From Nemertoderma westbladi (taxonomy: Eukaryota > Animalia > Xenacoelomorpha), in NCBI GenBank assembly GCA_032718475.1, contig JAUCBJ010009151.1, positions 62,001 through 126,000 on the forward strand: a DNA stretch of 64,000 bases, read 5' to 3'. Both the position numbers and the translations under genes were made by a program. The notes under the pieces were generated by a model. It had not been told where the DNA came from and did no database searches. It worked only from the letters and a program-made list of their open reading frames with translations. Shown in pieces: positions 1,029 to 50,703 of this stretch. Numbering within the stretch: position 1 is the first letter of the stretch; every line of letters begins with the position of its first letter.

Positions 1029-1483
1029 CTCGTGTAGCCACTGTTATACCAACTGGTAATCGCTGCACTTATGAAGCCACTGTTATACTGACCAGTAATC
1101 ACTGCACTCGAGTAGCCACTGTTACACCGACCAGTAATCGCTGCACTCGTGTAGCCACTGTTATACCAACTGGTAATTGGTGCACTCATTTAGCCACTGT
1201 TATACCAACCTGTAATCGATGCACTCGTGTAGCCACTATTATACCGACCGGTATTTGCTACACTCATTTAGCCATTGTTATACCAACCAGTAATCGCTGC
1301 ACTCGTTTAGCCACTGTTATACCGACTGGTAAAAGCTACACTCGTGTTGCCACTGTTACACCAACTGGTAATCGCTGCACTCGTGTAGCCACTGTTATAC
1401 CGACAAATAATTGCTGCACTCATGTAGCCACTGTTATACCAACCGTTAATCGCTGCACTCATGTAGCCACTGTTATACCAACT
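1029..1483. repeat. 39-bp satellite, block 1
   Basis: Tandem ACTCGTGTAGCCACTGTTATACCAACCGGTAATCGCTGC variants, period 39. Confidence 0.97.
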
Positions 1484-1654
1484 TTTTTTTTTTTACGGTT
1501 TTTTATTTTTTAATAACGAAAATAATCCATTAACATTGTAACTACGTAGCCTAATGCAAGAGTAGTATTCGTCACCACCCGTCACCAAGCAACAGTACCG
1601 CACTTTGTACAGTTAGGCCTACTGCAGTACTGTTTGGATCAAGCTGCCCACAGT

Positions 1655-4600
1655 TTACGATTGAACCGGAGTTGCGGTTGCTGTGTCAGCATTTGACAGC
1701 GTGATGGAGGTCTCCGCAATTTCGTGGTGAACCGGACGTCTGCTTGAGGAGCGGGACCCACGAAGGCACATTAGAGAAGATCTCAGAAGAGAGAAACTCA
1801 GTTGCCTCCGCGTCCATGACACACATTCCGGGTAGCTGATTCCACGTTTGTCCGCAATCTTTAGGGACAACCGCTTCACGAACTGCTGTGTTGTCGGCGC
1901 CATCCCTCCAAATGCAGAGAATATGAGGGGTGTAAAAGTCGATAACTCGACTTCACGGATACGCTCCTCATATTTTAGCTGCTTCCGTCGCTCGTGGTAT
2001 TGATGGGCTTCCTCTAACTTCATTGCCGCATTGGTTTCTGCCAGCGGGTTAAATACGGAAACATCGATAAAAGTTTTCTGATAGCGACTACCCCAAAACC
2101 CCGATACCGATACGTCGAGTCTGGCCTGCTGATCTGTTGTTGTAGAACGGTAGTTGAACGTTTCTCCCGTTAGCGTTTGCAATACCGGTTCGACCGCTAC
2201 GTTGTGGGCCACCTCGGAAAGCGCGTTGGCAATGAAATCCCTAATCTCGTTGTGCCGTATTGAAGGATATCCTCCAGTGGGGCACGAAAGGACGTGTGTT
2301 GCAGAAAATCGCACACCGCAGACACAACGAGAGGGGAGAGATTTCGGTTGCCACCCATACCGGAGACACACTGCATCCCGGAACTCTTCTTTCGAGAGGT
2401 GAGTATGATGTAGGGTTACTGGTTTGCAATTCAGCCAGGCTGACGCACCTTTCTCTGTTACAAGCTCGGATAGGTTCTGTTGGTATGCTGGTAGGTTATT
2501 ATAAACACGTTCCCTCTTTTCTTTCAGACCAACAATTGCTTCACACTTAATCTTATGGGCGATTACCTTCTGCGCCTCCAAGATCTCCGGCATATCTTCC
2601 TCGGTTCCAGCGGTGGTAAACGGTTCACATATAAGCCGAGAGTTGGCATATTGGGATTCAAGGTCAGATGGTAACGGAATTCCCAGACCACCGAGCCTGG
2701 TTGGTAAGGAAAACAAGTGACGCTCCTCGGATGTCAGGGAAGGCCGATCGACAAGGCGGCACAGTAAACTATTTACCGTTTTCTCGAGTTTATCCAACTG
2801 GTTCGCTGCCTCCGGTAAAACACGCGCGAGGAAACGCCATCGGCACGACAGCCCGAAACTCAAGCCTGCATACGCGCAATGCGGGTCAACATCCGCTATA
2901 CGGCCTAGTCGTGCGACCTCAGCTGCGAATTCCACCACCTTTTTCTCGATAAACTCCTCTCTAAAGGAGTCCGTTCCGATCACACTGCCGAGAAATTCTG
3001 CTCCTGTGTCGTCGATTACGATTTGGGTTCCTGCAAAGACTGCTCTTGCCTCTTCTACCTTCTTAGGTTTAACAATGAGGGTACATTTAGTTGGGTTTGG
3101 ATGGTACCCATATAACGGTCCTCTGCTGGATACTATGTCCCAGAACTTTCTGAGTTCCTCAAAGGTTCCGGCAGCGTTCCCATCATCAGCAAACCATTTC
3201 TGGGTGGCGGTGCAGGCTCCTCCTAACTCCTCTATTAATGGCGTTAAACCAGTAGCAAACATTGGCATTGCTACTGGGTCGCCCTGGGTTGATCCTTCTT
3301 GTGAGAGAATAGTCTCACCCCCAACAAAGAGGCGGGAAGGTCTAGAATAGCAATTAATTACCATCGTTTCTAAGGATGGACACACTTTCCCGATATTATG
3401 AATCGCGGCCTCTCTGTTCAGTGCATTAAAGGCATTCGATGCATCTATCTGTAGGACTGCATCACACTCTTCTGAGGCAAAAGCATCACTTATACTGTGT
3501 ATAGCGTGCTCTATGCCAGATTTCTGACCCATACAGAGCTGCGTAGTACCCCCAATAGCCTGTAGATCATCCCCAATACATCGCATTACCGCCTTGCCGA
3601 TTATCCGTCGTAGTACCTCCCCAATACCGATAGGACGCACCCCTGGACACTTATCGAGGGCCAATAAACGTGCCGATAGGAGAGAGGATAGACCCCCTGG
3701 CGGTAGCACCCCTTGCGCCATTTGCTTAGCGAGATTTGCTATTTCATAGCAAAGATCTGTAGAATGAGTGCGGAACTTGGTTGCTATATGTTTCCACCCT
3801 TGTACGTCAAGCCCAGAGGGACCTGCGGCCTTCCCCCTCATAGCTAGGATGGTAGACACAATGACGCCACTGTCAATCTTTTCAAATACCACGCTATGGT
3901 ATGGCGGGGCTCGTCTGTATTCCTTAAGCAGGACCGAGGAATCGGCCGATGCTGCGACGGGGTGTTTCTCCACCAGTGCTTCGCGAACTGTCTTGGTGGC
4001 ACCATCCTTATCCTTGAAAGTATAGTTAAGGTCTAGAGGTGCCCCTCTGCTAAGCTCACCAAGGCATCTTGTTGCTGCAGTCACATTTCCGGTTAGCATA
4101 TGTTTCGTAAACTGTTTCTGTAATGCTGAATCCTTGGAGTCACGGTTCCGACGCCTGGGCAGATGCGCCTGTATTGCCTGAGCCTCCGCCACTAAGCATG
4201 AAAAATTCCCATGTTTCCATTCGATCAACCTCCGTTCAAGAATTTTTCTATGAGTCGCGGTGGTGGATGATCTACTCGGTTTCTGTAAAAGCAGTGCCGG
4301 CATAATCATTAATGCCGACAAAGCGCAATTCTGTAGTGGAGATCCCCCAGTGTACAACCTAAGGAGACAGGACATTTCAGATACAAAGTCCCTTCCAACC
4401 GCCCCCAATGGCACTAGAAACAGATTCGCTCTCCAATGTACTACCGTGTCATATGCCACCGCGATGGAGCTCTCAAGCTGATGGGTGACTAAATGGTCCC
4501 AACGTCTTGCTATTCGCGTAGTGGCGACGTGGACGTTCGTAGACTGAGTAGCGGCAACGTGGGCGTTCGCAGACTGATTGGTGGCGACCTGGGCGTACGT

Positions 4601-5308
4601 AGACTGATTGGTGGTGACCTGGGCGTCCATAGACTGATTGGTGGCGACCTGGGCGTCAGTAGACTGAGTGGCGGCGACCTGGGCGTCCGTAGACTGATTG
4701 GTGGCGACCTGGGCGTCAGTAGACTGAGTGGCGGCGACCTGGGCGTCCGTAGACTGATTGGTGGTGACCTGGGCGTCCATAGACTGATTGGTGGCGACCT
4801 GGGCGTCAGTAGACTGATTGGTGGCGACCTGGGCGTCAGTAGACTGAGTGGCGGCGACCTGGGCGTCCGTAGACTGATTGGTGGTGACCTGGGCGTCCAT
4901 AGACTGAGTGGCGGCGACCTGGGCGTCCATAGACTGAGTGGCGGCGACCTGGGCGTCCGTAGACTGAGTGGCGGCGACCAGGGCGTCCGTAGACTGAGTT
5001 GAGGCGATGTGGGCGCCCGTAGACTGAGTGGCGGCGACGTGGGCGTCCATAGACTGAGTGGCGGCGACGTGGGCGTCCGTAGACTGATTGGTGGCGACCT
5101 GGGCGTCCGTAGACTGAGTGGCGGCGAGACTAGTATGATCCTGAGTTTTAAGAGGAGAGTGTTCCAATAAATAGTCCATGACCCCGTAGCCGTCCGACCT
5201 ATTGTAGAGCCTTGCTGGCGATGTGGCAGAGTCTGGACAGATGTTGGCACTAATTTTGGGCGTTGCCGGTGACGTCAAAGTTCCACCTGCTGTTAACGTC
5301 GTAGATAA
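1655..5308 (-). CDS. RT-RLE polyprotein, uninterrupted, open up to the 5' junction
   Basis: GVRPIGIGEVLRRIIGK, QIDASNAFN, GSTQGDP, WFADDG (RT); CVCG..HVLSC zinc knuckle; RHNEIRD, RLDV..FIDV..KQLKY (RLE). The annotated start is a TTG and the frame stays open (LSTTLTAGGT) to the satellite junction. Confidence 0.9.
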   Translation of the reverse strand, partial: LSTTLTAGGTLTSPATPKISANICPDSATSPARLYNRSDGYGVMDYLLEHSPLKTQDHTSLAATQSTDAQVATNQSTDAHVAATQSMDAHVAATQSTGAHIASTQSTDALVAATQSTDAQVAATQSMDAQVAATQSMDAQVTTNQSTDAQVAATQSTDAQVATNQSTDAQVATNQSMDAQVTTNQSTDAQVAATQSTDAQVATNQSTDAQVAATQSTDAQVATNQSMDAQVTTNQSTYAQVATNQSANAHVAATQSTNVHVATTRIARRWDHLVTHQLESSIAVAYDTVVHWRANLFLVPLGAVGRDFVSEMSCLLRLYTGGSPLQNCALSALMIMPALLLQKPSRSSTTATHRKILERRLIEWKHGNFSCLVAEAQAIQAHLPRRRNRDSKDSALQKQFTKHMLTGNVTAATRCLGELSRGAPLDLNYTFKDKDGATKTVREALVEKHPVAASADSSVLLKEYRRAPPYHSVVFEKIDSGVIVSTILAMRGKAAGPSGLDVQGWKHIATKFRTHSTDLCYEIANLAKQMAQGVLPPGGLSSLLSARLLALDKCPGVRPIGIGEVLRRIIGKAVMRCIGDDLQAIGGTTQLCMGQKSGIEHAIHSISDAFASEECDAVLQIDASNAFNALNREAAIHNIGKVCPSLETMVINCYSRPSRLFVGGETILSQEGSTQGDPVAMPMFATGLTPLIEELGGACTATQKWFADDGNAAGTFEELRKFWDIVSSRGPLYGYHPNPTKCTLIVKPKKVEEARAVFAGTQIVIDDTGAEFLGSVIGTDSFREEFIEKKVVEFAAEVARLGRIADVDPHCAYAGLSFGLSCRWRFLARVLPEAANQLDKLEKTVNSLLCRLVDRPSLTSEERHLFSLPTRLGGLGIPLPSDLESQYANSRLICEPFTTAGTEEDMPEILEAQKVIAHKIKCEAIVGLKEKRERVYNNLPAYQQNLSELVTEKGASAWLNCKPVTLHHTHLSKEEFRDAVCLRYGWQPKSLPSRCVCGVRFSATHVLSCPTGGYPSIRHNEIRDFIANALSEVAHNVAVEPVLQTLTGETFNYRSTTTDQQARLDVSVSGFWGSRYQKTFIDVSVFNPLAETNAAMKLEEAHQYHERRKQLKYEERIREVELSTFTPLIFSAFGGMAPTTQQFVKRLSLKIADKRGISYPECVSWTRRQLSFSLLRSSLMCLRGSRSSSRRPVHHEIAETSITLSNADTATATPVQS
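4521..5127 (-). repeat. 30-bp in-frame tandem repeat (~20 copies) encoding (ATQSTDAQVA)-like decapeptides
   Basis: GGGCGTCCGTAGACTGATTGGTGGCGACCT units aligned at period 30. Confidence 0.95.
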
Positions 5309-5309
5309 A

Positions 5310-8300
5310 ATACCAACTGGTAATCACTGCACTCGTGTAGCCACTGTTACACCAACTGGTAATTGCTGCACTCATGTTGCCACTGTTATACCAACCGGTA
5401 ATCGCTGCACTTGTGTTGCCACTGTTACACCAACTGGTAATCGGTGCACTCGTTTAGCCACTGTTATACCAACCAGTAATCGCTGCACTCATGTAGCCAG
5501 TATTATACGACCGGTAAATGCTACACTCGTTTAGCCACTGTTATACCAACCGGAAATCGCTGCACTCGTGTAGCCACTGTTATACCAACCAGTAATCGCT
5601 GCACTCGTGTAGCCACTGTTATACCGACCGGTAATCGCTGCGCTTATGTAGCCACTGTTATACTGACCAGTAATCACTGCACTCGTGTAGCCACTGTTAC
5701 ACTGGCCAGTAATCGCTGCACTCGTGTAGCCACTGTTATACCAACTGGTAATCGGTGCACTCGTTTAGCCACTGTTATACCAACCGGTAATCGCTGCACT
5801 CATGTAGCCACTGTTATACCAACTGGTAATCACTGCACTCGTGTAGCCACTGTTACACCAACTGGTAATTGCTGCACTCATGCAGCCACTGTCATACCGA
5901 CTGGTAATCGCTGCACTCGTGTAGCCACAGTTATACCAACCAGTAATCGCTGCACTTGTGTAGCCACTGTTATACCAACCGGTAAATGCTACACTCGTTT
6001 AGCCACTGTTATACCGACCGGATATCTGCACTCGTGTAGCCACTGTTATACCGACCGGTAATCGCTGCACTCATGTAGCCACTGTTATACCTACCAGTAA
6101 TCGCTGCACTTGTGTAGCCACTGTTATACCAACCGGTAATTGCTGCACTCGTGTAGCCACTGTTATACCAAAGCGGTAATCGCTGCACTAGTGTAGCCAC
6201 TGTTATACTGACCAGTAATCGCTGCACACGTTTAGCCACTGTTAAACCAACCGGTAATCGCTGCACTCGTGTAGCCACTGTTATACCGACCAGTAATCAC
6301 TGTACTCGTGTAGCCACTGTTATACCAACCAGTAATTGCTGCACTCATGTAGCCACTGTTATACCAAACGGAAATCGCTGCACTCATGTAGCCACTGTTA
6401 TACCAACCGGTAATCACTGCACTCGTGTTGCCACTGTTACACCAACTGGTAATTGCTGCACTAATTTAGCCACTGTTATACCGACCGTAAATCGCTGCAC
6501 TCGTGTAGCCACTGTTATACCAACTGGTAATCGGTGCACTCATTTAGCCACTGTTATACCAACCGGTAATCGCTGCACTCGTGTAGCCACTGTTACACCA
6601 ACTGGTAATTGCTGCACTCGTGCAGCCACTGTCATACCGACTGGTAATCGCTGCACCCGTGTAGCCACAGTTATACCAACCAGTAATCGATGCACTTGTG
6701 TAGCCACTGTTATACCAACCGGTAAATGCTACACTCGTTTAGCCACTGTTATACTGACCGGATATCTGCACTCGTGTAGCCACTGTTATACCGACCGGTA
6801 ATTGCTGCACTCGTGTAGCCACTGTTATACCTACCAGTAATCGCTGCACTTGTGTAGCCACTGTTATACTGACCAGTAATCACTGCACTCGTGTAGCCAT
6901 TGTTATACCAACCGGTAATTGCTGCACTCGTGAAGCCACTGTTATACCGACTGGTAAATGCTACACTCGTTTAGCCACTGTTACACCAACTGGTAATCGC
7001 TGCACTCGTGTAGCCACTGTTATAAAGACCAGTAATCACTGCACTCGTGTAGCCACTGTTACAACAACTGGTAATTGCTGCACTCGTGTAGCCACTGTTA
7101 TTCCAACCGGTAATCACTGCACTCGTGTAGCCACTGTTACACCGACCGGTATTTGCTACACTCGTTTAGCCATTGTTTTACCAACCAATAATCGCTGCAC
7201 TCGTGTAGCCACTGTTATACCCACTGGTAAAAGCTGCACTCGTGTTGCTACTGTTACACCAACTGGTAATCGCTGCACTTGTGTAGCCACTGTTATACCG
7301 ACAAATAATTGCTGCACTCGTGTAGCCACTGTTATACCAACCATTAATCGCTGCACTCATGTAGCAACTGTTATACCAACTGGTAATCACTGCACTCGTG
7401 TAGCCACTGTTACACCAACTGGTAATTGCTGCACTCGTGCAGCCACTGTCATACGGACTGGTAATCGCTGCACTCGTGTAGTCACAGTTATACCAACCAG
7501 TAATCGCTGACTTGTGTTGCCACTGTTATACCAACCGGTAATCACTGCACTCATGTAGCCACTGTTACACCAACTGGTAATCGCTGCACTCATGTAGCCA
7601 CTGTTATACCGACTAGTAATCGCTACACTCGTGTAGCCGCTGTTACACCAACTGGTAATCGCTGCACTCGTTTAGCCACTGTTATACCGACTGGTAATCG
7701 CTGCACTCGTGTTGCCACTGTTACACCAACTGGTAATCGCTGCACTCGTGTTGCCGCTGTTATACCGACCAGTAATTGCTGCACTCATGTCGCCACTGTT
7801 ATACCAACCGGTAATCGCTGCACTCGTGTATCCACTGTTATACCAAACCGGTAATCGCTACACTAGTGTAGCCACTGTTATACTGACCAGTAATCGCTGC
7901 ACTCGTTTAGCCACTGTTAAACCAACCGGTAATCACTGCACTCGTGTAGCCACTGTTATACCTACCAGTAATCACTGTACTCGTATAGCCACTGTTATAC
8001 CAACCGGTAATTGCTGCACTCATGTAGCCACTGTTATACCGAACGGAAATCACTGCACTCATGTAGCCACTGTTATACCAACCGGTAATCACTGCACTCG
8101 TGTTGCCACTGTTACACCAACTGGTAATTGCTGCACTCATTTAGCCACTGTTATACCGACCGTAAATCGCTGCACTCGTGTAGCCACTGTTATACCAACT
8201 GGTAAGCAGTGCACTCGTTTAGCCACTGTTACACCAACCGGTAATCGCTGCACTCGTGTAGCCACTGTTTTACCGACAGGTAAATGCTACATTCGTTTAG

Positions 8301-10210
8301 CCAATGTTATACCGACCGGATATCTGCACTCGTGCAGCCACTGTTATACCGACCGGTAATCGCTGCACTCGTGTAGCCACTGTTATACCGACCAGTAATC
8401 GCTGCACTTGTGTAGCCACTGTTATAATGACCAGTAATCACTGCACTCGTGTAGCCATTGTTATACCAACCGGTAATCGCTGCACTTGTGAAGCCACTGT
8501 TATACCGACTGGTAAATGCTACATTCGTTTAGCCACTGTTACACCAACTGGTAATCGCTGCACTCGTGTAGCCACTGTTATACCGACCAGTAATCACTGC
8601 ACTCGTGTAGCCACTGTTACACCAACTGGTAATTGCTGCACTCGTGTAGCCACTGTTATACCAACAGGTAATCACTTCACTCGTGTAGCCACTGTTACAC
8701 CGACCAGTAATCGCTGCACTCGTGTAGCCACTGTTATACCAACTGGTAATCGGTGCACTCGTTTAGCCACTGTTATACCAACTGGTAATCGCTGCACTCG
8801 TGTAGCCACTTTTATACTGACTGGTAATTGCTACACTCGTTTAGCCACTGTTATACCAACCAGTAATCGCTGCACTCGTGTAGCCACTGTTATACCGACT
8901 GGTAATTGCTACACTCATGTAGCCACTGTTATACTGACCAGTAATCGCTGCACTCGTGTAGCCACTGTTATACCAACCAGTAATCGCTGCACTCGTGTTG
9001 CCACTGTTACACCAACTGGTAATCGCTGCACTTGTGTAGCCATTGTTATACCAACCAGTAATCGCTGCACTCGTGTAGCCACTGTTATACCAACCAGTAA
9101 TCGCTGCACTCGTGTAGCCACTGTTATACCGACCGGTAATCGCTGCGCTTATGTAGCCACTGTTATACTGACCAGTAATCACTGCACTCCTGTAGCCACT
9201 GTTACACCGACCAGTAATCGCTGCACTCGTGTAGCCACTGTTATACCAACTGGTAATCGGTGCACTCATTTAGCCACTGTTAGACCAACCGGTAATCGCT
9301 GCACTCGTGTAACCACTGTTATACCGACCGGTATTTGCTACACTCATTTAGCAACTGTTATACCAACTGGTAATCGCTGCACTCGTGTAGCCACTGTTAT
9401 ACTGACTGGTAATCGCTACACTCGTGTTGCCACTGTTACACCAACTGGTAATCGCTGCACTCGTGTAGCCACTGTTATACCGACCAGTAATCGCTGCACT
9501 CGTGTAGCCACTGTTATACCAACTGGTAATTGCTACACTCGTTTAGCCACCCTTATACCGACCAGAAATTACTGCACTCGTGTAGCCACTGTTATACCAA
9601 CCGGTAATCGCTGCACTCATGTAGCGACTGTTATACCGACCGGTAAATGCTACACTCGTTTAGCCACTGTTATACCTACCAGTAATTGCTGCACTCGTGT
9701 AGCCACTGTTACACCAACTGGTAATCGCTGCACTTGTGTTGCCACTGTTACACCAACTGGTAATCGGTGCACTCGTTTAGCCACTGTTATACCAACCGGT
9801 AATCGCTGCACTCATGTAGCCACTATTATACGACCGGTAAATGCTACACTCGTTTAGCCACTGTTATACCGACCAGAAATCGCTGCACTCGTGTAGCCAC
9901 TGTTATACCAACCAGTAATCGCTGCACTCGTGTAGCCACTGTTATACTGACCGGTAATTGCTGCCTTATTTAGCCAATGTTATACTGACCAGTAATCACT
10001 GCATTCGTGTAGCCACTGTTACACCGACCAGTAATCGCTGCACTCGTGTAGCCACTGTTATACCAACTGGTAATCGGTGCACTCATTTAGCCACTGTTAT
10101 ACCAACCGGTAATCGCTGCACTCGTGTAGACACTGTTATACCGACCAGTATTTGCTACACTCGTTTAGCCACTGTTATACCAACCAGTATCGCTGCACTC
10201 GTGTAGCCAC
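5310..10210. repeat. 39-bp satellite, block 2
   Basis: Continuous 39-bp array with occasional 38/40-bp variant monomers. Confidence 0.97.
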
Positions 10211-10342
10211 TGATGAATTATTTCACTATAGGATAGCATTAGTAGTATAACGTAAAAACTTTCGAAAATCCGACGCATTTTGATTAAGTCACAGTAATGT
10301 AATATGCCTACTCATATCAGTACACATAAAACCCCTAGTTAA

Positions 10343-10429
10343 TCTCGTGGCGTAGTGGTCAGATGGTTAAGGCATTGGTTGCATTACATAGGTTACGAGT
10401 TCGAATCCCAGTCGGGAAATTTGCATTTT
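10343..10429 (+). ncRNA. tRNA-like Pol III module (A box, B box) inside the BEL-1 LTR; second copy at ~30051-30137
   Basis: TGGCGTAGTGG and TGGTCAGATGGTTAAGG (D-arm/A-box-like), GAGTTCGAATCCC (T-arm/B box), flanking TCTCG/CGGGA pairing, T4 run downstream. No clean anticodon arm, so not called a functional tRNA. Confidence 0.65.
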
Positions 10430-10464
10430 GGGGCAATTTATTTTCATTTCATACAATTTGACAA

Positions 10465-10603
10465 ACCAATGAGGTGCGTACAACACATGGAACGATGAGT
10501 TAGGCCAATCATAGGGCATGGAATATCTTATTGCTCCAATGTGAGGCCATGGAATACTCTAGAAAGTTCTAGTAGATTCTATGTCCCAGATTTAGTATAT
10601 AAA
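10465..10603 (+). promoter_or_regulatory. LTR Pol II promoter: three CCAAT boxes, heat-shock-element-like array (10552-10579), TATA box (10596-10603)
   Basis: CCAAT..CATGGAA three times; GAA-ta-CTC-ta-GAA-ag-TTC-ta-GTA-ga-TTC; TATATAAA. Same motifs in the 3' LTR (30260-30311). Confidence 0.6.
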
Positions 10604-12416
10604 GGGCTGGTTTGCCTTTGGTTATCACTTATCTCTCTACACCATTCTTAGTTAGTACAACTTACGGTTCACTACTCTTGTTAAACTTGATTCATTCAGT
10701 TTATTATGTTTCTTGTTGAAACTATTTGGCAATTCTGTTTGATAAAGTTTTGTAAACTGTAAATATACTATAAACTTCTGAACATGTTTTTCTGCATTTG
10801 TCCAACTTTGGGACAGCAAAGCATCAGGAAGATGGCCGCCTAGACCGTTAGGCCGTCAGCAACGCAGGGAAAGGATGTCCACAACACGCTAGCGCCCACA
10901 TTAGCTTAGACCGCGCACCCCCTTCGCCCTTCGAAATGCTCCACTCGCCATGCAGCGCCCTCTTTATGAGGAAGGTAAGACTTTGTTTGATGCCCTTGCC
11001 CGCCGTAAGACCTATAGATCAGGGTAAGCGTGACGCCGCAAATTTAGGATCAAATAACTATATTTTGGCAGAACCCCCCCCCCCCCCCCCCCCCCCCCTT
11101 GTCAGTAGTACGAACCCCTGGGTTACCTGTATACCTCACAGGTGCGAATTATTGCCATTCGTCAGTACGCGAGTACACATTAGGTACGGACAGCATATGT
11201 TCCATAATTTAGTGATTCGTAGTACTGACTGTTTGGTACCGGTTCGCTTTGTAGAGCATACATTAGTACCCTACCCCCGCCTGAAGTTAGTTATTTGATC
11301 AGGCAAGGAGTATTTCTGCTACCGGCACACTGCTTGGCCTAGGGAGGTTTTATTAATATCCTACCGCGCCTTGCCACGTACTGATAGGTATTGCTGCTAA
11401 CTACCGCAGCAACAAAGTTCTAGAATCAAATTTGTATACCAGATCAGCTAACGTACAGTAGCAATTAACCCCTATTTCTTATCTTACAACCAGAATCTGG
11501 TATTTGTGCCTATCACGGGTGTAGTTACTAACACCGTGGTTGCCCAGTTGAGTTGTGGATAGGAAGAAGAGAGCTTTGACATCATTTGTAAGTATAAAGC
11601 TCTACAAAACGCGACTAGCTTATTTTAGTAGCTAGCGCACGGTATTATTTCGGTCAGAGAATTACCAAAACCTAGTAAATGATATACACCAAAATTGTTT
11701 TATTGTAACACACCCACACACACACGCCCTAAAACATATTTACCCTTAGAGTTCCTACTAGATAGCGCAATTTAGATTTAGGCAGAATTTATCTGTATTT
11801 GTAAATTAGGATCAGATATTTAGTTACGGCAAGGGAGCATTTCATCTTCGTTATTAAACTGTTGTTTTTCTGCGCATCAGTTATTGTTACATTTAGGTAC
11901 GACCTCTTTTAGGCTGATTCAGACAGGGGGATCAGTATTGTTACGCTAGGTCCGTAACCAACCTAGCTCGTATATAAACCATATAAATCACACCGCGGCA
12001 AGTTACTGTATTTAGGACTGTCAGCGATAGTTAGGATTCGCTGCGCGGGGATTGTTTTCCCGTGAGTTTGGTCTGTTACTGTAACTGTACATCTGCCATA
12101 CCGGTTAGAGGACAGGTATCCTTTTGTCTAGTACGTAGGCATTAGACCCGCCCACGTACATAGAATAGACACCAGGCTCTGCTCCTCGCCAGTAGTAGTT
12201 TGTGTATTGTATCTGTTTGTTTAGATATCCTGGACTGGGATTTGTTGTCAGATACTGTACGAGCCCGTTCCATTACTAGAGTCTTACAGTAAGATACATC
12301 GTTACTAGGATCTGGTAAGCGGTATACTACTGGACTTTACGGATAGAGATATTCTATAGCTTCGTATTTGTAGATTTGTAGGCTGTAGGGTAGTTCCTAC
12401 CGTAGAGGACACAACA

Positions 12417-12426
12417 GTGAGGTATA
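12417..12426 (+). promoter_or_regulatory. Non-tRNA primer-binding position GTGAGGTATA, complementary to LTR-internal TATACCTCAC (11130-11139)
   Basis: No TGG start next to the LTR; exact 10-nt reverse complement present in both LTR copies (11130-11139, 30835-30844). Confidence 0.7.
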
Positions 12427-13444
12427 TTTTATTTTATGAAAGTGAGAGATATACTTTGCAGTGGTATATGTTTGTTTACCTCACAACAGTGAGGTATATT
12501 TTATTAAATATCTTAACTGAAAGTGCGTGCGCACTTTACAGTGAGATATATATATATAAATATATATTGTTAGCTATTGTAAAAGTAGGAGATATTTAAA
12601 AATTTAAGGTTAGTAAAATTTAGTAATTTGTAGAACGTCCCCTGCTTCAGTAGCCTTTTAGGGTAGCTAGTACTTTTGTATTTAATATTTGACTAGCTAA
12701 TAGTTAGTTTGTAGCAATTTGTTTTACGCCGTGTGTGTGCGGTGTTACTTTTCGGTACTTGAAAAGGTACATAGGGTTTAAAGACCAAGTTGTATCGGTA
12801 CCTAGGAAGATTTTTCGTAGAGTAGAAGTAAAACTCTCACCTTCGACTTTTCAGGACTCAAGGACTCATTTCTGGACCGCTTCGAGGATTAGACCGCTTT
12901 TCGCAAAGTTTGGGAGACAAAAAATTCGTCCGCACCGCCGAAAACGGAACGACCCACGTCCGGTTTGTATTTGGGAATTTGTACGACTGGAAGATCAAAG
13001 GAACGTAAGTTTTACGACTCGTGTCGTTCAAACTTAAGAAAGCACAGTAGTACTCAAAATTTGTGGGTTTCACTGTCTATTAGTAGTGTTGTTGGTACTT
13101 ATTTTCCCGTTAGACATTGCTGTTTTGCCTATTATTTGTACTTGTTGATCTACATTTTGGTAACGTATACTGTTATCTCATTTATTCGTACAAATTTAGC
13201 CAGTAGGCTAGATTATTACTTATTTTATTATATACTTTGTTAATTTTATTTGTACCGGTTAGGGTATATATATCAAGGTAAGTTTGTCATTTGGACATTT
13301 CGACATTTCGACATTCTGACTTTGTTGATTTATTTGTACCGGTTAGGGTATATATATGCTATATATATACCGAGGTAAGTTTGACATTTCAACATTCAGA
13401 TATTTTGAAATTTTATTACCCGTACTTGATGTATATAATAAGAC

Positions 13445-14055: not shown

Positions 14056-17000
14056 AAGTTTTTTTTTAAGTTTATTGTTATTTATAGGAAAATGTTATAA
14101 TTAGAACCATCACCAAAGCACAGTTTAGTTGTAATGGAATAAAAAGAAAAAGAAAAAGAAAATGTGTATGCAGTGTGCGAGGCGGTGGGTTGGTAAGGGT
14201 TGCAGCAATAGCCAGGCTAGTCGTGGCTGCCAACCGACCAAGGGTAAATGTACTGTATATGTAACTAAGTATTATATATTTGAAAAAAGATAAAATAAGA
14301 ACTGTTATAAACCTTTAATAATTGTTGGTCAGGATCACAAGGAAATATAATAATTTAATTAACCATTTTACAATACACTGTAGTGAAGAAACAGTCCAGT
14401 CGCAGTGTATGTGAGAAGGAAATATAATAAGATAGAGCCAGACATATAGGGAGATATTGTGTAATGTATTATTATGACGTTACGTCATGTGTTCAAATAG
14501 GTATGTTTTAAATTGACGTTTAAATGAAAATTTAGATTTGCTAATAATTAGACTAGAGGGGAGACTGTTCCACAATACTGGCCCAGTGACTGATAATCCT
14601 TGGTGTGCTACATTGAGACGGGTTAACGGTACTACGAATTTGCCTAAAGTAGATGAACGTATATAAATCAATATCAGACAATTTAGTAAAAAAATTTGAA
14701 AGAGGGTGATTATTAGAAGATTTTGATATATCGAACATTAACTGGCCTAATTGTAATTCAAATATAGATTCGATTGGCAAAACATTTAGTGATTTGTAAA
14801 GTGGCACAGAGTGAGCCCGGTAGTCACTAAATGTTATGCAACGCAAGATTTTATTAACTTTAATTCTTAGTGGACGTGTTATTAATTTGCAGGCAGTACC
14901 CCAAGCAAGAATTCCAGAAGTGATGTAAGGATTAATTAAAGTATAATACGTAAAATTTGGCTTGGGAAAAAGTGTCTTAATTTATAAAAAAGTCCGGAGG
15001 ATCTAGATTAAGGATGTAATTTATATGCGTTTTCCAGCTCAAATTGTCATCGATAAAGATACCTAAGTACTTAGTGCTATTTACCTTAGTAATTTCATTG
15101 GCTTTAATTTTAACTTTCGGTAGTCCAAGGCAGTTTTTGTTACTAAAAATAGAGTATTCTGTTTTACTAAGATTAAGTGATAATGAGTTGTCTATAAGCC
15201 AGTCCGAAATTTTTTCCAGTTCAGTGTTTGTGTTGTTAATCAATAATTTTAAGTCTGAATTGAAGCACAGTAACGTCGTATCGTCGGCAAATAAAGTTGT
15301 CAAAAATTTGGATGCGTCCGGTAAGTCGTTCACATATAAAAGAAACAGCAATTGTGAAAGGACTGAACCCTGGGGCGTTCCGCAGGTTACCGGAAGAGTG
15401 GGTGAGATTATGCCATTTAAGGATACTGATTGTGTACGGTCTGTTAGAAAACTCCTAAGTAAAGTCTGGGGGGTGCCTCGAATTCCGTAAGATTCTAATT
15501 TTTTAAATAAGGGAGAGTGGTTCAGCGTATCAAACGCTTTTTTTAAATCTAGATAAATTACGCAGATAGATTCTTTTGAGTCAAGGTGAAATCAAATTTT
15601 TTCTGTAATTGTTAGAATAGCCGAAGCCGTAGAAATCCTCTTTCGAAAACCGAATTGTGATGCAGTCAAAATACAGAAACGATCTAAATAAGATTGGAGC
15701 TGTGAGTATATAACCTGTTCTAGAATTTTTGTAAAAACTGGCAATAATGATATTGGCCTATAGTTATTAGAATCTAGTGGATCACCCCCCTTAAAACATG
15801 GGATTATTTTAGATTGTTTAAGAGAAACTGGATAATGACCTGTTGTGATACATAGGTTAAATAAATATGCCAGATGAGGTGCAATGTGTTCAGCAGCAAT
15901 TTTTAATAATTTACTGGGAAAGTTGTCATTAGTAGCGCTGTTTTCATTTATTTGTAAAAGTAGGTAGTGAATTTCAGCTACAGAAGTTTCAATAAGAGTA
16001 AATGAATTCGAGTGTCGATGGTTAATGTGGCGGGTAGGGCATCGGTTAGATCGGGGTATTGTACTGGCAAGTTTTGGTCCAATAGTTGAAAAATGTTCGT
16101 TGAAAATAGATGCTATTTTATGGGGATCAGACGTTATTTTTGCCCCTACTTCTGTTCTGAAAGCAATTTTGGTAGGGCTTAGGGATTTCTTATTTTTGTG
16201 TAATACAGAGTTAATTACAGACCATGTCTTGCGCATATTTCCTTTGTTTTTTAAATATTCTTGATTATAGAATGATTTTTCAGCGGCTCTGATTACAGTC
16301 GTTAAATTATTACGATATGTTTTATAGGCTTTTTGGGTTTCAGAACACGGTGATTTAATATATTTTTCATATAATTTATTTTTTTTAGAAATTGATTTAA
16401 TTAGCAAAGGAGTTAGCCATGGTTTGCGTGCAATTTTTCTTTTTGTAATTATTTTTTTAGGTAAGTGTTTTTGGCATAATTGATCAAAAGAATTGTAAAA
16501 AATGTCGAATTTTTTATCTGTCGGTATATTATGTGATCGGTAAGCTGCGAGAGGTGGTAATGAAAGGTCGAGCAAAAAACTAAGTTAAATTTGCTATAAT
16601 CATAGCACATTTTAGTATTGGGCTGTTTGAAAAAAGCAGAATAATTATGAAATAACGCAAATGTTCCAAGGTGGTCTGTTGTGCCAATTTCTGATAAAAA
16701 AACGCCGGCAGTAGTAAAATCATTCGTAATATTAGTAATAATATGGTCAAGCGTTGAATTAGCACCGTGTACAATTCGAGTGGGTTTTATTATTAATTGG
16801 GAAAATCCGTATGATGAAAGTATCTGTAAGTATCGTGCACTATATGATGTCATTTTGTTTAAGTTAACATTGAAGTCACCAGTGAGGACGATATCTATAT
16901 TTTTATCAGATACTTTCGCCAATGCGGGTTCTAGAATATTTATAAAATTATTGTAATTGACAGATGGGGGTCTGTATATTACACCTAACACTAAGGACTT

Positions 17001-18138
17001 CTTGTTGGATTTTTTAATTTGGATCCATTTATTATGAATTCCCGACACAGTCAAGTCGTCTCGTTCCGTAAAGGTTAGCGTATCCTTAATGTAAATTCCC
17101 ACACCCCAACCGGAGCCTGAGGAACGTCCCTCTGGTCTGTCTGATAGTAGCGGTCCTACATAGTTGTCAAGTTTTAATTTACAGTGATTGTCTTTAGCAC
17201 CTACTAATGTGTCAGTAAAAGTGATAACATCAAAATCTTCGTCTAATGTACTTAAAAATTCAGCAGTGTAAGAAAGATTATTGTTTAGACTTCTACAATT
17301 TAGGTGATATACAGAAAAAGAGTTATGATGAGAACCTATACGCTCGATTTCACTGTTAAATTTAGTATCATTATAGTATTCGCTATTTCGCGCTAAATTT
17401 TGAATGTTATTATCCGGATCAATAGTAGCAAAACTAGGATTATCAGCATTTTCGTTGAGCAAGTATAAATCGTCGGAAATTCCGAAAATATCATAGTCGT
17501 TAGACGGAATATCGCTAAAAGGAAAAATCCCATGTAAACAAAAAATGCAGTAGTGACTCGTAAAAAACTGAGACTGTTCAAGCTCTGCGGTTTCTCCATA
17601 TGTCAGGCAAGTTCCACACTGCTGGTGATAACTGTTTCTACACACCGCGCATAAAATGGTATTATCGTTATTTTTGAATCCTGAAAAACAGAGAGCACAT
17701 GAATTACTACAATTAGAGTTCGTATCAATCTTCCCACCTGCAATAATGCCTCAGCTGACAGCCTGCACACTGCATACTGTCGCTTAATACAATGTATATA
17801 TATTATACACTATGTTATAATATATAATATTAATAAATCAGTACATCCCGTTAAGCCCTGACCATATATGGGCCACTAGTGATATTGTAAGTCAGTTAAA
17901 TTAATTCTGTAAATTATTCCAAGAGTTAATAATAATTTGAATTGCCTTTCTGGATGACCAGATTAGGGGTTTCCTAGGATCCTATGCGTATTAATTTCCA
18001 TCACAGTCCAGAGAGTTATAAGGATTTAAAGAGGGAGTAATTGGCGAACTATTCTGGCGTTGTTGGAAGGTGGTAACGGCGTCGATTTCGTCGACAACAA
18101 TCTACTGCCTGGATGGGAGATTAGGGACGCTCACCAAT
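14056..18138 (-). mobile_element. CR1/L2-group (Crack/Daphne-like) LINE nested in BEL-1 gag
   Basis: AT-rich block with PHD-APE-RT coding remnants; 3' end AATAAACTTAAAAAAAAACTT on minus; only TTT duplicated at the junctions (14053-55 and 18139-41). Confidence 0.85.
14480..17750 (-). pseudogene. LINE ORF2: PHD finger, APE endonuclease and reverse transcriptase; multiple frameshifts/stops
   Basis: CALC..CAVC..HQQC..CIFC (PHD); YHLNCRSL, GVIYRPP, GDFNVNL, TLDHII, TDH (APE); NYRPISLLP, QFGFRK, GTPQGSVL, LFADDTT (RT) across ORFs 16449..17645, 15592..16575, 14977..15351, 14553..14846 and 14480..14671. Confidence 0.9.
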
Positions 18139-18141
18139 TTT

Positions 18142-21126
18142 CTTCGTAGATGCGGCGTACCGATTGAAGAACCGGAAGTGGAACCGCGAGGGACGACGGA
18201 AGTTCTTACTACGGAAGGCTCGCGAGCCTACCAAAATCCACCAATGGATAGATCATTCGTTAGCATGCGGAGCGACATTGGCGACATTAGTAGAACAGCG
18301 TCTGTAATTACTCGACAACAACAGGAGGTTGCACGCCGACAACAAGTCGTCGAGGAAGAAGCGCAACAGTGGATGGCACAGATCGCCATCGAGGGAGAGA
18401 AACAACGTAGAGAAGATGAGACGAGAATTGCGCAACTCAAGGCGCAAGCCGAAGTCGAAGCATCGGAGATGAGAAGATTAGCACGACAGAAAGAGGCATC
18501 TGACGCACGTGCTCAGTTGGAGGCACGGCAAATAAAATCACGTTTAGCTATACAGGAAGCAGAGTTAGCGGCACAACAACAAGTAGCGGATCGACTCGAA
18601 AGGGAGATGCAACTACAGTTCGAACTAAATCGTAGATCGCGCGAGGCAGCGAACGCGCAAGCGTACCTTGAACTCGACGCGAGAGATAGATCTATAAGAT
18701 CGCGAGCTGGACACGACTTGTCTGCCCTGGATCGCATGGAAGCTCGATATCGCGGAATTCAGAAGCGAATCGAGGAAGGAAGTGTGGGAGCGATAGATCG
18801 AGGAGAGGAGTTCATCGAGGATTACTGTAAACGTTTTCCCCAAGTTATTCCTATGCTCAAACCCACGACTCCGATAAAACCAGTCTTTGTTACGAAACCT
18901 AAGGAAATAACACCTGTGCGCTCGACGCAAGGTAGCAGGTTTGTTGTGACGGAAATACCGCAACCTAGGGCGACTTCATCGCCAATTTTAGCAGGTAACG
19001 TAACTAGTCCACCTACAGTAAGTCGTAGTCTACTTGTAGGAAGAGAGGAACCTGCGTTTATGACAATTAAACAGGTAAGTAAGCCATTAGTAGTTAAACC
19101 TGTGACGTGCTGTGCGAACCCAGTTATTTATAGACCGACTACGAAACCCGACTACTTTACTCGACCTTTGACACAATGTTCGACACAACCTACGACTTCG
19201 TGGAAGGCTTGCGAGCCTGCCGAACAACGGAGGAGAACGGATGTGGGTAGTACCCACGGGATCGAACAACGTTTAACGAGACCTACGACTTCGTGGAAGG
19301 CTTGTGAGCCTACCGAACGACGGAGAACCGTAGATTCTGGACCCCAACGAGTGAGACAAAAGGTAATACGCCGGACGCGAACATGCCAGCCACCTTATCC
19401 GGACGACAGCGACTCATCCAGTGACTCGGAGTCGACGGAACGGGAAATATTCCGTACTGGAGCGGCAGCGACAGCGGATTACAAACGAGAGGAACGATCG
19501 ACGAACCCCTACATCGACAATCCTCCACGAGAAACACCCCAGCAGAAACCCACGTTGCAACCAGTGGAAACGATCAGCGCCAAACAGTTCGCCGAGATGA
19601 CGGACCGACTAGCTCAACTCGAAGAACGACTTGAAGCGCAACCGTCGGATCAATCACGAACCAGCGTGAAGTTAGAACAACCTAGACAACATCGACCACC
19701 AAGGCGAGAACAGGAGACTAGACAGACTCCGACACATCGAGAAGAAGATCCCGTTAATAATTCCTACCGACGAACAACACGCGGAAGGGAACGACTGGAC
19801 GACGCCACCGAACAGGGACGCGGACAGTTGGATTTGGTTAGTGAGATTGCGAAATTCGGGGCTAGACACGGATTACCGGCACAGCAACCGCCGAAGTTCT
19901 CTGGCAACGCGAAACACTGGCGCACACTGGTAGACTACATAGAGTCCCAGATCACTAAGTGTGCTTTCACCTCGACGGAGAAGTTTAATTACTTGCTCCT
20001 AGTCCAGTCTGGTGAGCCGAAAGGATTAGCGGAAACCTTTATTGGTGTTCCCGATGCCTTTGAGTTGGCGTACGACCGTTTGTATTCGATTTACGGCGGT
20101 AACGTCGCCATAGCTAAATCCATTATCGAAGACCTCTGTAGAGGAGGCAGCATTTCGAAACCGATCGATCTTCTACGACTCGCGGACGAAATAAAAAACG
20201 CTATAGGGACTTTACGGTCCATTGGACAACTCGAGTACGCTAACGCACCGACGGTTCTCATCAGGATAATCAGTCGACTTCATCATCGACTTCGACGAAA
20301 ATGGCGACGCATCGAGTACCAGCGTGAAGAGGCCGGCGGGCTATTAAAACTCACCGACGTCTATCAACTGATTTCGCGGGAGGCCGTTATCGAGACTCAA
20401 TCGAATTATACTGATCATCATATCGGGACAGAAGGGATAGCTATTTCTGCGCCGACTCGGACTAAACCGTTTCCGACGAACGCGAAAGCCGTTACCTACA
20501 ACACCCCTACTGAGACTTCTAAAGTACTGACGCCTATCGGCACCATGCAGCCACGACAACAGTTGCCGGCGGACTTTATGGGATGCTCATATTGCGAGCG
20601 GGACGGCAGAAACCATAGCGGACATAAACTTCGTGGATGTCGCGCTTTTAAAGAGTTAGGAATCGAGGAGAGGAGACTCCAAATCCAATCTTTAGATTCT
20701 TGCTGGAGATGTACCAAGCCAGGACACGTCCGGAAGGATTGCCCGAGCGACGATACATGTCCTCTGTATGGACGTAACCATGACACGTTACTTCACACTA
20801 CTAGTCATACTCCGACCAGACGCTTTCGACGAGAGCATCCAGATAAAGCGGCTAGATGCGACGCTCCTCACAGAACTAGAACTAGAACTAGAACGCTCCT
20901 CACACAGAACCAATTGAAAGGGTTTAGCGTGATTCCTATAAAGATTACTGGAACCCGAGGGAGCAAGCGTATATACGCTATCTTAGACTCTGCGTCATCA
21001 CACAGTTATGTCGACGAACAAGTAGCTGACGTGGTTACGGACATGAGTCACGGTAAGACTGCTCAGTATACTGTTGGACGGGCCGAATATGAACAATTAC
21101 CTCATGGGAGTCCTAATGAGTTTTAG
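18142..21126 (+). pseudogene. gag: BEL-1 gag (coiled coil, DUF1759-like, three Cys/His knuckles) plus start of aspartic protease
   Basis: LPAQQPPKFSGNAKHW, LRRKW, CSYC..H..C, CWRCTKPGHVRKDC, HDTLLH; protease YAILDSASSHSYV; truncated by an internal deletion near 21060. Confidence 0.88.
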
Positions 21127-24100
21127 ACAACGCAAAGTGGCTTTCACCTGTGACGTAGAGGCCATGTTTCACCAGGTTAAGGCTTTGGAGCGGGACAGGG
21201 ACAGCTTGAGGTTTCTTTGGTATCCGGACGGAAATTTAGAACTTCCGCCAGAAACTTACCAAATGCAGGTAAGGGTCTTCGGAGCCAGGGACAGCCCCAA
21301 CTGCACCATGTACGCCTTAAAGCAGACCGCATTGGACAGACGAGACCAATTTGACCCAGAAGTAGTTCGGACAGTGGAACGAGATTTCTACGTGGATGAC
21401 GGCCTCAAAAGTTGTGACACTTTGGAGCCTGCTACAACCGTAGCACATCAACTCCAGGATTGTCTCGCTGAGGGCGGATTCCACCTGACGAAGTTCGCTT
21501 CCAACGAACCCGAACTGGTGAACTCATTTGACCCGACGGATCGTAGTGGAGGTGACTTAGACTTAGACCTAGAACCTCTGCCAACGACCAAAGTATTAGG
21601 ACTTAGTTGGGACCCTAACACCGACAATTTTAGGGTACGTGTAAGGTCCAACGACCAGACTAGACCTCTCACTAAGAGGACTTGCTTATCGACCATGAGT
21701 CGATTGTATGACCCATTGTGTTTCATTAGTCCAGTGATCCTACATGCTAGGATCATACTCCGCAGCATTTGGCAAGCCGGACTGGAATGGGACGATCCCA
21801 TCCCAGAAAAGTTAGCTGAGCAATGGAGGGACTGGGAAGCCCAACTGACGTTCCTACAAGACTATACCATACCAAGGGTATACTTTCCTTTGCAGACCAC
21901 CTTTCCTGCCGATTTAGAGCTTCACAGCTTTAGTGACGCTAGCAAGGATGGATTGGGGGTTACCTTATACCTTAGACGACAAGTGACATCGGACGGCTAC
22001 GATGTGTCTCTCGTTACTTCTAGGGCTAGAACAATGCCGTTGAAGTATATGACTGTACCTCGTGGAAAGCTGCAAGCCGGGACGATATCCACCGATATTG
22101 TCAGTCTAGTTCAACGCGAGCTGGAGGCTAACTTGAAGGTCACATATTGGACAGATGCGACGTTGGTACTTTGGTACATAAACAACAAAGCATTTGAGTT
22201 CAAGACTTTCGTAGCCAACAGACGGGCTGAAATATTAGACCGGTCGCTCAAACAAGATTGGCATCACTGTCCAGGGAAGCTGAACCCAGCTGACATCGCG
22301 TCGCGGGGGATGCAACCGCTTGACTTTTGTAAACCAGACAATAAATCCTTTTGGTTTAGAGGACCCGATTTCCTACAGCAACCATCAGACGAATGGCCAC
22401 CGTTATTCGACGCGACAACCAACACCATACCAGAGGGTGCCAAGATAAAAATCGACAAGGTTGTCTAATCCAAAGCGAAAGCCAACGCCAAGGTCAAGAG
22501 GAAACAAGGACGGACGAAATCTGATGACCTGGATGCCAGACCTGACATTACACCAGACGTCTCACCAGAATCTCAACCAGACGCTCGCATGAATCTTTCG
22601 TCGGATGTTCCACGGGAGATTTCACCAGATGTTTCGCCGGATTGTTCACCAGATTACTAGCCAGATTATTCACCAGAAGCGACACCAGATTGTTCTCCGG
22701 ATTGCTCGCCAGATTGTTTTATGGAACTCTCGACAGAATGTTTACAGGACGTCTCACCAGACTTTCCACCAGACATCTCGACAGACTGTCCACCAGACTT
22801 TGGACCAGACTTTCTGACAGAAGTTAAGCCAGACTTTCTTTGGGACCGACGACAGGACATTTCGCCGGATGTTCCGCGCTATGTCTCACCAGACTGTTCA
22901 CCGGACGCTTCACCAGACTGTCTACTAGACACTCCAGTAGAAGACCCATTGGAGCGGACTATTAGAAACTTACCGAATTTGACTTCTTTCTCTTTGGACG
23001 ACAAAGGTGTGGCCACAGCGATCACACTCCGCTCAAAGAAGGTACTTGACTTACCACCTACAGGTAAACGTGTGACTAAGGTTAGGAAGCTTACAGGCTC
23101 ACAGGAACACACTGGCACTGTGGAGTTGAAACCGTTACTGTCAGTCGACTCACTAGAAGCGGACGGTAAAGGTAAGACCGTGGAGATTGACATACTTGGG
23201 GACTCAGACAAACCTATCGGAAGGCCCGTGGGCCTACCAAGTCCAGACAAGTATCCACACTATGACTATACCTTACCTGATGACGTCACCAACACTTACG
23301 TTGACAGGATAGTGAACCTAACTAGATCATGGACTGACGCGTGCCGCAAGTTAGCATGGCTCAAACGTTTGAGATAATATTCCAGAGGCAAACGCGATTT
23401 CCTAGAGGACTTACCTTAAAGGAAGTTGGTCATTATGAAGTTGATATCATTAGACATTATCAATTGCGATATTTCGCACGAGAGTTCACAGCGATCAACC
23501 AAGGTAAACAGATTAAGTCTTCACCGATTTTGAGTTGGAGTCCGATTATTTACCGGGGCTTACTTTGCCACAAGTCCAGACTCCAAAACATCGACTTTGC
23601 ACTAGACTTTAGGTATCCTATCACCATACCGCAACACCATGAATTACAGCGCGCTATGATACTGGACGCACATGTACAACTCAAACACGTGGGTAGACAC
23701 CACTGTCTATCACACTTACGATCGAGGTTTGTACTGATTAGACCTAGTAAGGCACTGAGTTCGGTAACACGGAACTGTATGATTTGTAAGAAGGTGCACA
23801 CGAGGATAGGACACCAAGAAATGAGTGAACTACCACTAGCGAGATTACAGGCATTTAGACCCCCTTTCACTGAGACAGGGATAGACAGTTTTGGACCCAT
23901 AATCGCGAAACGCGGAAGGGTACAGGTAAAATGTTGGGGATTGATCTTCACTTGCATGGCCAGCAGAGCTGTCCATATAGAGCGTGTGACAGATTTGACC
24001 ACCAATGCCTTTATCCTAGCCTTACGGCGATTTATCGCTAGACGTGGATTGGTCAAATCCATCTATTGCGACCAAGGGACAAATATTGTGGGTGCACGGA

Positions 24101-24807
24101 ACGAAATAACCAGAGCTTTAAAGAAGTTGGACCAAAACCAGATTTCCGAGGAACTACATCCTCACCGTATTGTTTGGTATTTTAATACTCCAGACAGTCC
24201 GTGGAGAGGCGGCGTTTGGGAAAGGCTGATTGGTTCAATTAAGACAGCTATGGCTAAAGTAATACCAACGCAACACATATTAACAGACGACCAACTGACG
24301 ACGTTACTAATAGAAATCGAAGCAGTTTTAAACACTAGACCGATCGCTTTGATCCCAGACAATAACGACGCCCAGTTTGCCTTGACACCAGCGCACCTGC
24401 TTATGCAGGCGCCGACGACATTGTTGCCCATTTCGGTACCCGTTAATAGCGACGGATACGGCAACAAAGCTTGGAAAATCACTCAATTACTTGCAAATAA
24501 ATTCTGGGAAATATGGCAGAAATATTATTTGCCCTCTATTTCGACGAGAACCTCTTGGTATCTTAATACCCGATGTTTGAGACGTGGTGACCACGTTTTA
24601 TTGGCTGAAGCCAATCTGAAAAGACGGTTTTGGCTGACTGGAGTCATTTTGACCACGCACCCTACATCTGGTGTAGTGAGAACAGTTACTGTAAGGACTA
24701 TCGACGGTCGTACCATAGACAGACCTGTACAACGTCTCGTGCTCCTTGAGGAGACTAGAAACGAGACAGGTGACGACTACAAACCTCCACCCAATATTAG
24801 TAAATAG
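21074..24807 (+). pseudogene. pol: BEL-1 pol: RT (N-terminus deleted), Pao RNase H, low-complexity linker, integrase
   Basis: LLDGPNMNN, DVEAMFHQV, FYVDDGL (RT); HSFSDASKDG, YWTDAT, NPADIASRG (RH); H..H..CMIC, GIDSFGP, CDQGTN, GGVWERLIGSIK (IN); stops at 22466-68 and ~22660, frameshift ~23375. Confidence 0.93.
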
Positions 24808-50654: not shown

Positions 50655-50703
50655 CTTTTGGCTCTTTAGTCGGTGGCTGGTAACTGTCAGTTAGTTCGGC
50701 TTG

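Follow-up and report, generated by a model that had tools for sequence, protein, structure and literature searches.

Introduction

According to the ICTV profile, BEL/Pao retrotransposons use as primer a tRNA-Arg or tRNA-Gly, the 3' end of which is complementary to an 18-nt site; their LTRs measure 0.2-1.2 kb and their genomes 4.2-10 kb, and their replication is termed poorly understood (PMC8742986). Priming without a tRNA is described elsewhere among LTR retrotransposons. In the cited sections of the reports on Tf1 and Tf2 of S. pombe, Tj1 of S. japonicus and the Tf1/sushi group, no tRNA site is present, and the site following the LTR pairs with a segment of the LTR, which is cleaved into the primer by the reverse transcriptase (RT) (PMC4600332, PMC5341516, PMC10085805). 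For Tf2 the same sections describe cutting of the segment, followed by its extension into the LTR end (PMC5341516), and in part of another report the end of Tf1 cDNA is described as often still carrying the primer site, copied into DNA (PMC11042837). In the parts of the literature cited, Tf1/sushi elements are described as self-priming, and the same is predicted of Tcn1 and TAR (PMC6317226, PMC4600332, PMC10085805, PMC6934838, PMC5006619). The prediction rule for plant TAR (Ty1/copia) and Tcn1, as worded in the section cited, is LTR complementarity of at least 10 bp located 0-5 bp past the LTR (PMC6317226). As far as these sections go, the predictions for TAR and Tcn1 imply that self-priming arose more than once.

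Three BEL/Pao surveys contain no tRNA or primer-site wording in the main text, according to a word search (PMC554778, PMC3118150, PMC6238403). Neither self-priming in BEL/Pao nor a splice-built primer was found in the titles and abstract openings of a literature search that excluded subscription papers and Repbase reports. In this report, a BEL/Pao element and its relatives are compared with the systems described above.

Structure of BEL-1

The window, i.e. the whole 64-kb stretch of DNA analysed here, is eukaryotic DNA, chiefly a 39-bp satellite and insertions. One insertion, BEL-1, is located at 10211-32121 (+) and is 21.9 kb long with a nested LINE counted in. Its main features are as follows.

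10211-12416 (+): 5' LTR, 2206 bp, TG...CA ends, from the repeat pair and flanks
10596-10601 (+): TATA-like box in the 5' LTR, putative promoter
11853-11858 (+): sole AATAAA/ATTAAA-type signal in the LTR, 714 nt past the candidate primer
14977-17750 (-): nested LINE, broken, with endonuclease and RT, inside BEL-1; ends approximate
18022-21126 (+): Gag (DUF1759, zinc knuckle) and start of the protease
21047-22468 (+): C-terminal part of RT and RNase H (Peptidase_A17), lacking the N-terminal RT part
23338-24807 (+): integrase (H2C2, DUF5641), in its own separate frame
25921-28203 (+): extra ORF, possible 3'-5' exonuclease-like domain (a lead only; ESM Atlas score 0.91)
29905-29918 (+): purine-rich tract, short and degenerate, before the 3' LTR
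29919-32121 (+): 3' LTR, 98.0% identical to the 5' LTR, with the primer segment unaltered

BEL-1 shares with Belpaoviridae the two TG...CA LTRs, a 5-bp TSD (GCCAC at 10206-10210 and 32122-32126, read from the flanks), the order gag-PR-RT-RH-IN and the BEL-type domains DUF1759, Peptidase_A17 and DUF5641. The order of the Pfam matches, DUF1759, Peptidase_A17, Integrase_H2C2 and DUF5641, is that of BEL/Pao. BEL-1 differs from Belpaoviridae in its 2.2-kb LTRs, in its length of 21.9 kb including the nested LINE and in the lack of an 18-nt site for tRNA-Arg or tRNA-Gly; the nearest TGG is located 45 nt beyond the LTR end. BEL-1 is a defective BEL/Pao LTR retrotransposon, and its membership of BEL/Pao rests on the proteins. 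The pol is broken. Only the residues 1122-1581 and 1686-2129 of the 2147-aa ORF of an intact relative are matched, by pieces in different frames, and no match to this ORF is present between the protease motif (around residue 605) and residue 1122. With LTRs that are 98% identical, the BEL-1 copy is a fairly recent product of reverse transcription. Since part of the RT is missing in BEL-1, the enzyme was supplied either by an intact sister or by this copy before its decay.

Pairing between the leader and the LTR

The elements of the pairing in BEL-1 are listed below.

11129-11139 (+): candidate self-primer, ten Watson-Crick pairs and one G:U pair, in a predicted local hairpin
12417-12427 (+): primer-binding position, GT start, offset 0
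12410-12560 (+): diverged tandem duplication of about 72 nt, containing the LTR end and the primer site

The sequence GTGAGGTATA at 12417-12426 directly follows the terminal CA of the 5' LTR (12416), and it is complementary to TATACCTCAC, which is located at 11130-11139 and again at 30835-30844 in the 3' LTR. The duplex consists of ten Watson-Crick pairs, or 11 pairs including one G:U, and begins at offset 0 from the LTR end. An earlier note on this DNA had described this complementarity with its extra G:U pair and had placed its limit at the LTR boundary; both were verified. That reading had overlooked a second copy of the LTR end and primer site at 12482-12505. The first 24 nt are identical between the two units of the duplication, and the second primer site (12489) lies within its own 8-bp hairpin at 12477-12496. 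A hairpin further downstream is kept in both units with different letters.

When the LTR was shuffled 20,000 times with its dinucleotides preserved, the exact 10-mer arose in 96 cases (chance 0.005) and, at any of the offsets 0-5, in 383 (chance 0.019), so that the value of about 0.002 estimated earlier is too low. Empirical controls gave 55/15,194, 6/2,291 and 17/11,991.

A second element of the window, BEL-2, lies on the opposite strand.

50714-51291 (-): BEL-2 5' LTR, 578 bp; element 51291-39918, 5-bp TSD
50936-50945 (-): BEL-2 candidate self-primer
50704-50713 (-): BEL-2 primer-binding position

In BEL-2, ten pairs are formed at offset 0, which was reproduced in 3 of 20,000 shuffles, and TGG was not found in the first 122 nt after the LTR. 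Protein similarity is confined to gag-protease; neither RT nor integrase was matched. The earlier note regarded the two sites as covarying, with GTGA and one further pair in common. GTGA (positions 1-4) is indeed common to both sites, and nothing beyond these four positions is. The LTRs of BEL-1 and BEL-2 give no blastn match, so their columns are not comparable, and the argument from covariation as first written is weak.

Both BEL-1 and BEL-2 conform to the published rule, as in each a complementarity to the LTR of 10 nt or more begins within 0-5 nt of the LTR end. TAR and Tcn1, to which the same rule was applied, are plant copia and gypsy elements, and no splice-built primer is described for them in the section cited. 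BEL-1 resembles Tf1 in the lack of a tRNA site, in the LTR complementarity and in its similar length. The primer pairing of Tf1 is 11 nt long. Tf1/sushi elements are chromoviruses of Ty3/gypsy, whereas BEL-1 has BEL-type domains and no chromodomain match in Pfam. By analogy, BEL-1 would work like Tf1 but lies outside the Tf1/sushi group.

Related families

Relatives were collected with an RT-RNase H alignment as the query. The best 80 of 569 confirmed metagenome loci, which are about 41% identical to BEL-1 in protein, form 43 families at 85% identity, and in 13 of these the LTR end is set by the repeat pair alone. A fixed rule was applied to the 13 families: pairing had to start at offsets 0-5 and be either contiguous or continuous over a junction between a listed donor and a YAG/AAG acceptor. 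The donor list was drawn up after an earlier result had been inspected.

Among these 13 families from the best 80 of 569 loci, 11 reach 11-12 Watson-Crick pairs with their own LTR at offsets 0-5. Since kin families share sites, the 13 families are not 13 independent cases; they hold nine distinct primer-site sequences, eight of which pass. Under the same rule, 11 pairs were reached in 1 of 126 downstream leader blocks and in 0 of 224 cross-family pairs. The BEL-1 score of ten Watson-Crick pairs was also attained by 8 of the 224 cross-family pairs. The paired site starts with GT in the 11 passing families, in BEL-1 and in BEL-2, and the primer accordingly ends with AC.

In nine families (F1, F7, F9, F10, F12, F14, F19, F30 and F35) the primer would form only once a GT-AG intron, 75-366 nt long, is removed. 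F20 has a contiguous primer; in F31, a contiguous and a spliced form are both present. With scores of 4 and 5, F18 and F39 fall short of the fixed rule, and each reaches 10 through a donor off the list. F39 has TGG at offset 1; TGG is absent at offsets 0-5 in the other 12 families. A narrow canonical TGG-type pattern was found in none of the best 80 of 569 loci. According to these sequences, the primer appears to be split by an intron in many relatives, and BEL-1 and BEL-2 would represent contiguous forms. The distance from primer to site is 1277 nt in BEL-1 versus 87-360 nt in the 13 families, and a poly(A)-type signal is located 11-254 nt beyond the primer in these families.

As the leader and the LTR come from different contigs in some families, the test was repeated with 5' LTRs on the same contig only. 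Ten of 14 rows reach 11-12 pairs, three reach 10, and the truncated L053 reaches 5. A looser search covered the other 30 families, seven of which gave no candidate. There, 9 of 23 families reach 11-12 pairs (six spliced and three contiguous), a count that is biased because the best of many candidates is taken per family. The contiguous cases are F26, F27 and F33, and F33 has a competing 13-nt match elsewhere. Scans of viral contigs returned nothing.

These results give the idea of self-priming strong comparative support at the level of sequence. The signature is strong across the family, and BEL-1, a defective element, exemplifies it less well; on its own it would be a modest case, and the weight of the case lies in the relatives.

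In L004, L018, L052, L057, L027, L082 and L083, the site begins 2-5 nt past CA, and extra A is mostly present between the purine tract and the LTR start. No extra A bases are present there in the offset-0 families. This pattern suggests two styles of end processing.

Intron loss and compensatory change

L059 contains a 536-nt GT-AG intron in the LTR. The 3' LTR of L053, which belongs to the same family, lacks exactly that stretch, and its 11-nt primer is contiguous; L053 is possibly a mosaic contig (the LTR overlap is 88% identical). Loss with such exact GT-AG borders is what reverse transcription of a spliced RNA would be expected to leave behind.

Five further loci, L081-L085, were obtained, of which L082 and L083 have a usable LTR end and the other three have none. 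L082 and L083 are whole elements of about 6.9 and 7.3 kb including LTRs. Their LTR identities are 99.8% and 100%, respectively, and the intron form is present in both LTRs of each. At the homologous donor, the exon ends with TAA in one and CAC in the other, and the sites read TTA and GTG, respectively. Two homologous exon-end positions thus change together with the primer site, i.e. two compensatory changes are observed across the exon junction. Judged from these sequences, the compensatory change is real in L082 and L083, unlike that proposed from the comparison of BEL-1 with BEL-2.

The contigs of L081-L085 were binned in bacterial metagenome-assembled genomes and are likely host DNA. L083 (1-1000 and 8269-8746) also sits in a tandem satellite with a unit of about 73 bp.

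Probable position of the primer in the BEL-1 transcript

One further feature of the BEL-1 5' LTR bears on the layout of the transcript.

10975-11105 (+): candidate intron, predicted splicing; GTAAG donors at 10975, 11005 and 11024, poly-C tract, AG at 11104-11105

The motif TCAGT at 11102 had been proposed as an initiator. TCAGT occurs six times in the BEL-1 LTR, and this lack of specificity rules it out as a specific initiator. The copy at 11102 closes the poly-C tract with AG. It forms the strongest polypyrimidine-AG (acceptor-like) site of the LTR, 81-131 nt past the GTAAG donors, and a 3' splice site is no less plausible a reading of it than an initiator. Because 11102 resembles a splice acceptor, the layout with an internal primer is likelier. 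The earlier note had mentioned as a caveat that a TATA promoter at 10596 would place the primer about 500 nt inside the RNA; judged from the motifs, this caveat describes the likelier layout. Counted from the TATA at 10596, the primer would lie at a depth of about 500 nt in the unspliced RNA and about 380 nt when 10975-11105 is removed. Thus, the BEL-1 primer is probably internal to the RNA and not at the cap, unlike that of Tf1.

Neither for BEL-1 nor for BEL-2 was a spliced primer found that is better than the contiguous form. An element-encoded tRNA-like primer was also considered and rejected. A- and B-box motifs are present at 10348 and 10399, yet ARAGORN and Rfam returned no hit, and other partners form better duplexes with the primer site than this stretch of the LTR.

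Predicted RNA structure

The BEL-1 primer is predicted to lie within a hairpin, and the primer site is predicted to be locally paired as well. In whole-region folds the probability of the duplex is 0-0.18, and forcing the duplex costs 7.9 kcal/mol out of -424 for the whole fold. The net pairing energy after opening the local structure is -2.7 kcal/mol with 60-nt flanks, which falls inside the range of 12 relatives (-2.1 to -7.7 with the same flanks); with 100-nt flanks, calculated for BEL-1 only, it is +0.1. The whole-fold duplex probability of the relatives is erratic (0.00-0.98) and was rejected as an unreliable discriminator. Since the fold test spreads so widely in the relatives and the BEL-1 energy lies in their range, the negative structural results for BEL-1 are weakened.

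In the case of BEL-2, the predicted probability of the duplex is about 0.95, and pairing interrupted by loops prolongs it to about 30 nt. Tf1 needs a 'pretzel' of three duplexes around the primer-binding site; its two flanking stems were not predicted above chance, either in BEL-1 (22/100 and 30/100 shuffles) or in BEL-2 (77/300 and 230/300 shuffles).

The BEL-2 leader at 50680-50713 (-) pairs, with loops, with a stretch of about 30 nt that lies upstream of the primer in the LTR, and this pairing looks like a decayed, longer antisense copy. The 3' ends of the two BEL-2 LTRs differ (39918-39940 versus 50714-50740): where the 5' LTR has a hairpin, the 3' LTR has a short direct repeat instead.

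Proposed priming mechanism and alternatives

On the basis of these results, the following mechanism is proposed for BEL-1. In an RNA transcribed across the site, the first 10-11 bases of the leader would pair with a segment of the element's own LTR, which would likely loop back onto the site of the same RNA and form the duplex in the cell. By analogy with Tf1 and Tf2, the RNase H of the RT would likely cut the segment after its terminal AC. The RT would then extend this self-primer into the LTR end, giving minus-strand DNA without a tRNA. If the primer site is regenerated from the primer during copying, matched changes and an exact start at the LTR end would follow. We consider it very probable that the primer is an LTR-derived RNA, acting either in cis or in trans. 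For BEL-1, Tf1-like self-priming in cis is the reading that we moderately favour, from the sequence and from the analogy with Tf1.

For the wider group, a scheme with about even chances is that a large animal branch of BEL/Pao dropped tRNA priming and that the spliceosome joins two LTR exons into the primer, possibly on a separate short RNA. BEL-1 and BEL-2 would then be intron-free, hard-wired forms, as is visibly the case in L053.

The most serious alternative, which we regard as rather unlikely, is a primer acting in trans. A short LTR transcript, spliced where an intron is present and ended at the LTR poly(A) signal, would anneal to the full-length unspliced RNA. This would simply account for the intron in both LTRs of the young elements L082 (99.8%) and L083 (100%), to which the cis model fits only if the 3' copy escapes splicing. 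The poly(A)-type signals 11-254 nt after the primer in the 13 families agree with such a transcript, and no 1.3-kb loop would be required in BEL-1. However, the 3' end of the primer must still be made by cutting or trimming, the BEL-2 duplex in cis is predicted at about 0.95, and known self-priming, as described in the sections cited, is in cis (PMC4600332, PMC5341516).

It is improbable that the pairing serves as a structural or regulatory duplex of the leader, masking the site, and that a host RNA such as a half-tRNA acts as the primer. A single host RNA would keep the site constant, whereas the site differs among the nine sequence groups, BEL-1 and BEL-2, in each case in line with the LTR of the element itself; moreover, the pairing has a near-constant length (10-12) and starts 0-5 nt from the LTR end. 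These features stand against the TGG at offset 1 in F39 and the existence of half-tRNA priming in Ty1/copia lineages, as mentioned in the section cited (PMC6317226). That the BEL-1 match is due to chance or is a dead relic, in an AT-rich, duplicated and hairpin-rich leader without function, is very improbable despite the single-case chance of 0.005 (0.019 over offsets 0-5), the duplicated, locally paired leader and the broken pol, because the same geometry and GT start are found in BEL-2 and 11 of 13 relatives, the 98% identical LTRs indicate recent reverse transcription, and no alternative primer site is visible.

If the primer is self-derived, self-priming would have originated independently once more, in a third superfamily of LTR elements, and the finding calls into question the ICTV priming rule for BEL/Pao. 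A splice-formed primer, if real, would tie the replication of a retrotransposon to the splicing state of the host, with splicing switching replication on, and it would account for elements missed by tRNA-based annotation of primer-binding sites.

Phylogenetic placement and additional features

In a quick maximum-likelihood tree of 74 rows, the BEL-1 RT falls within a branch that contains all of the 43 families together with proteins mainly of marine animals; the rows from insects, spiders and nematodes lie outside it (SH-aLRT 99). In this tree, whose rows include no named clade references, BEL-1 lies on a long basal branch (2.23), so its placement is unsure.

An extra ORF follows pol in both elements (BEL-1 25921-28203 (+) and BEL-2 42961-43767 (-)), and the two are weakly alike (E 3e-4). 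The residues 230-620 of the BEL-1 ORF match 3'-5' exonuclease clusters in the ESM Atlas (0.91; PF01612 on 50% of the named cluster). For this ORF, no match was returned by Pfam, phmmer or the PDB, and the single-sequence model has a pLDDT of 29. According to the section cited, Juno and Vesta of bdelloid rotifers carry a DEDDy exonuclease as ORF3 (PMC5408684). BEL-1 resembles them, as they are described there, in that pol is followed by an additional ORF whose fold may be that of a 3'-5' exonuclease; Juno and Vesta are gypsy-like, and the assignment in BEL-1 is a lead only. A role of the extra ORF in making the 3' end of the primer is unneeded, as whole relatives of about 7 kb carry the signature.

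The first 580 bp or so of the BEL-1 LTR (10211-10790) contain their own TATA and initiator-like motifs, as judged by eye. This part may be a captured second LTR, which would account for the LTR length of 2.2 kb. The tRNA-like A and B boxes (10345-10416) are present in both BEL-1 LTRs and possibly represent the head of a SINE. Two further RT-bearing insertions are located on the minus strand within the 39-bp satellite, at 1483-5310 and about 57096-60197 of the window, and the former has a poly(A) tract at its end.
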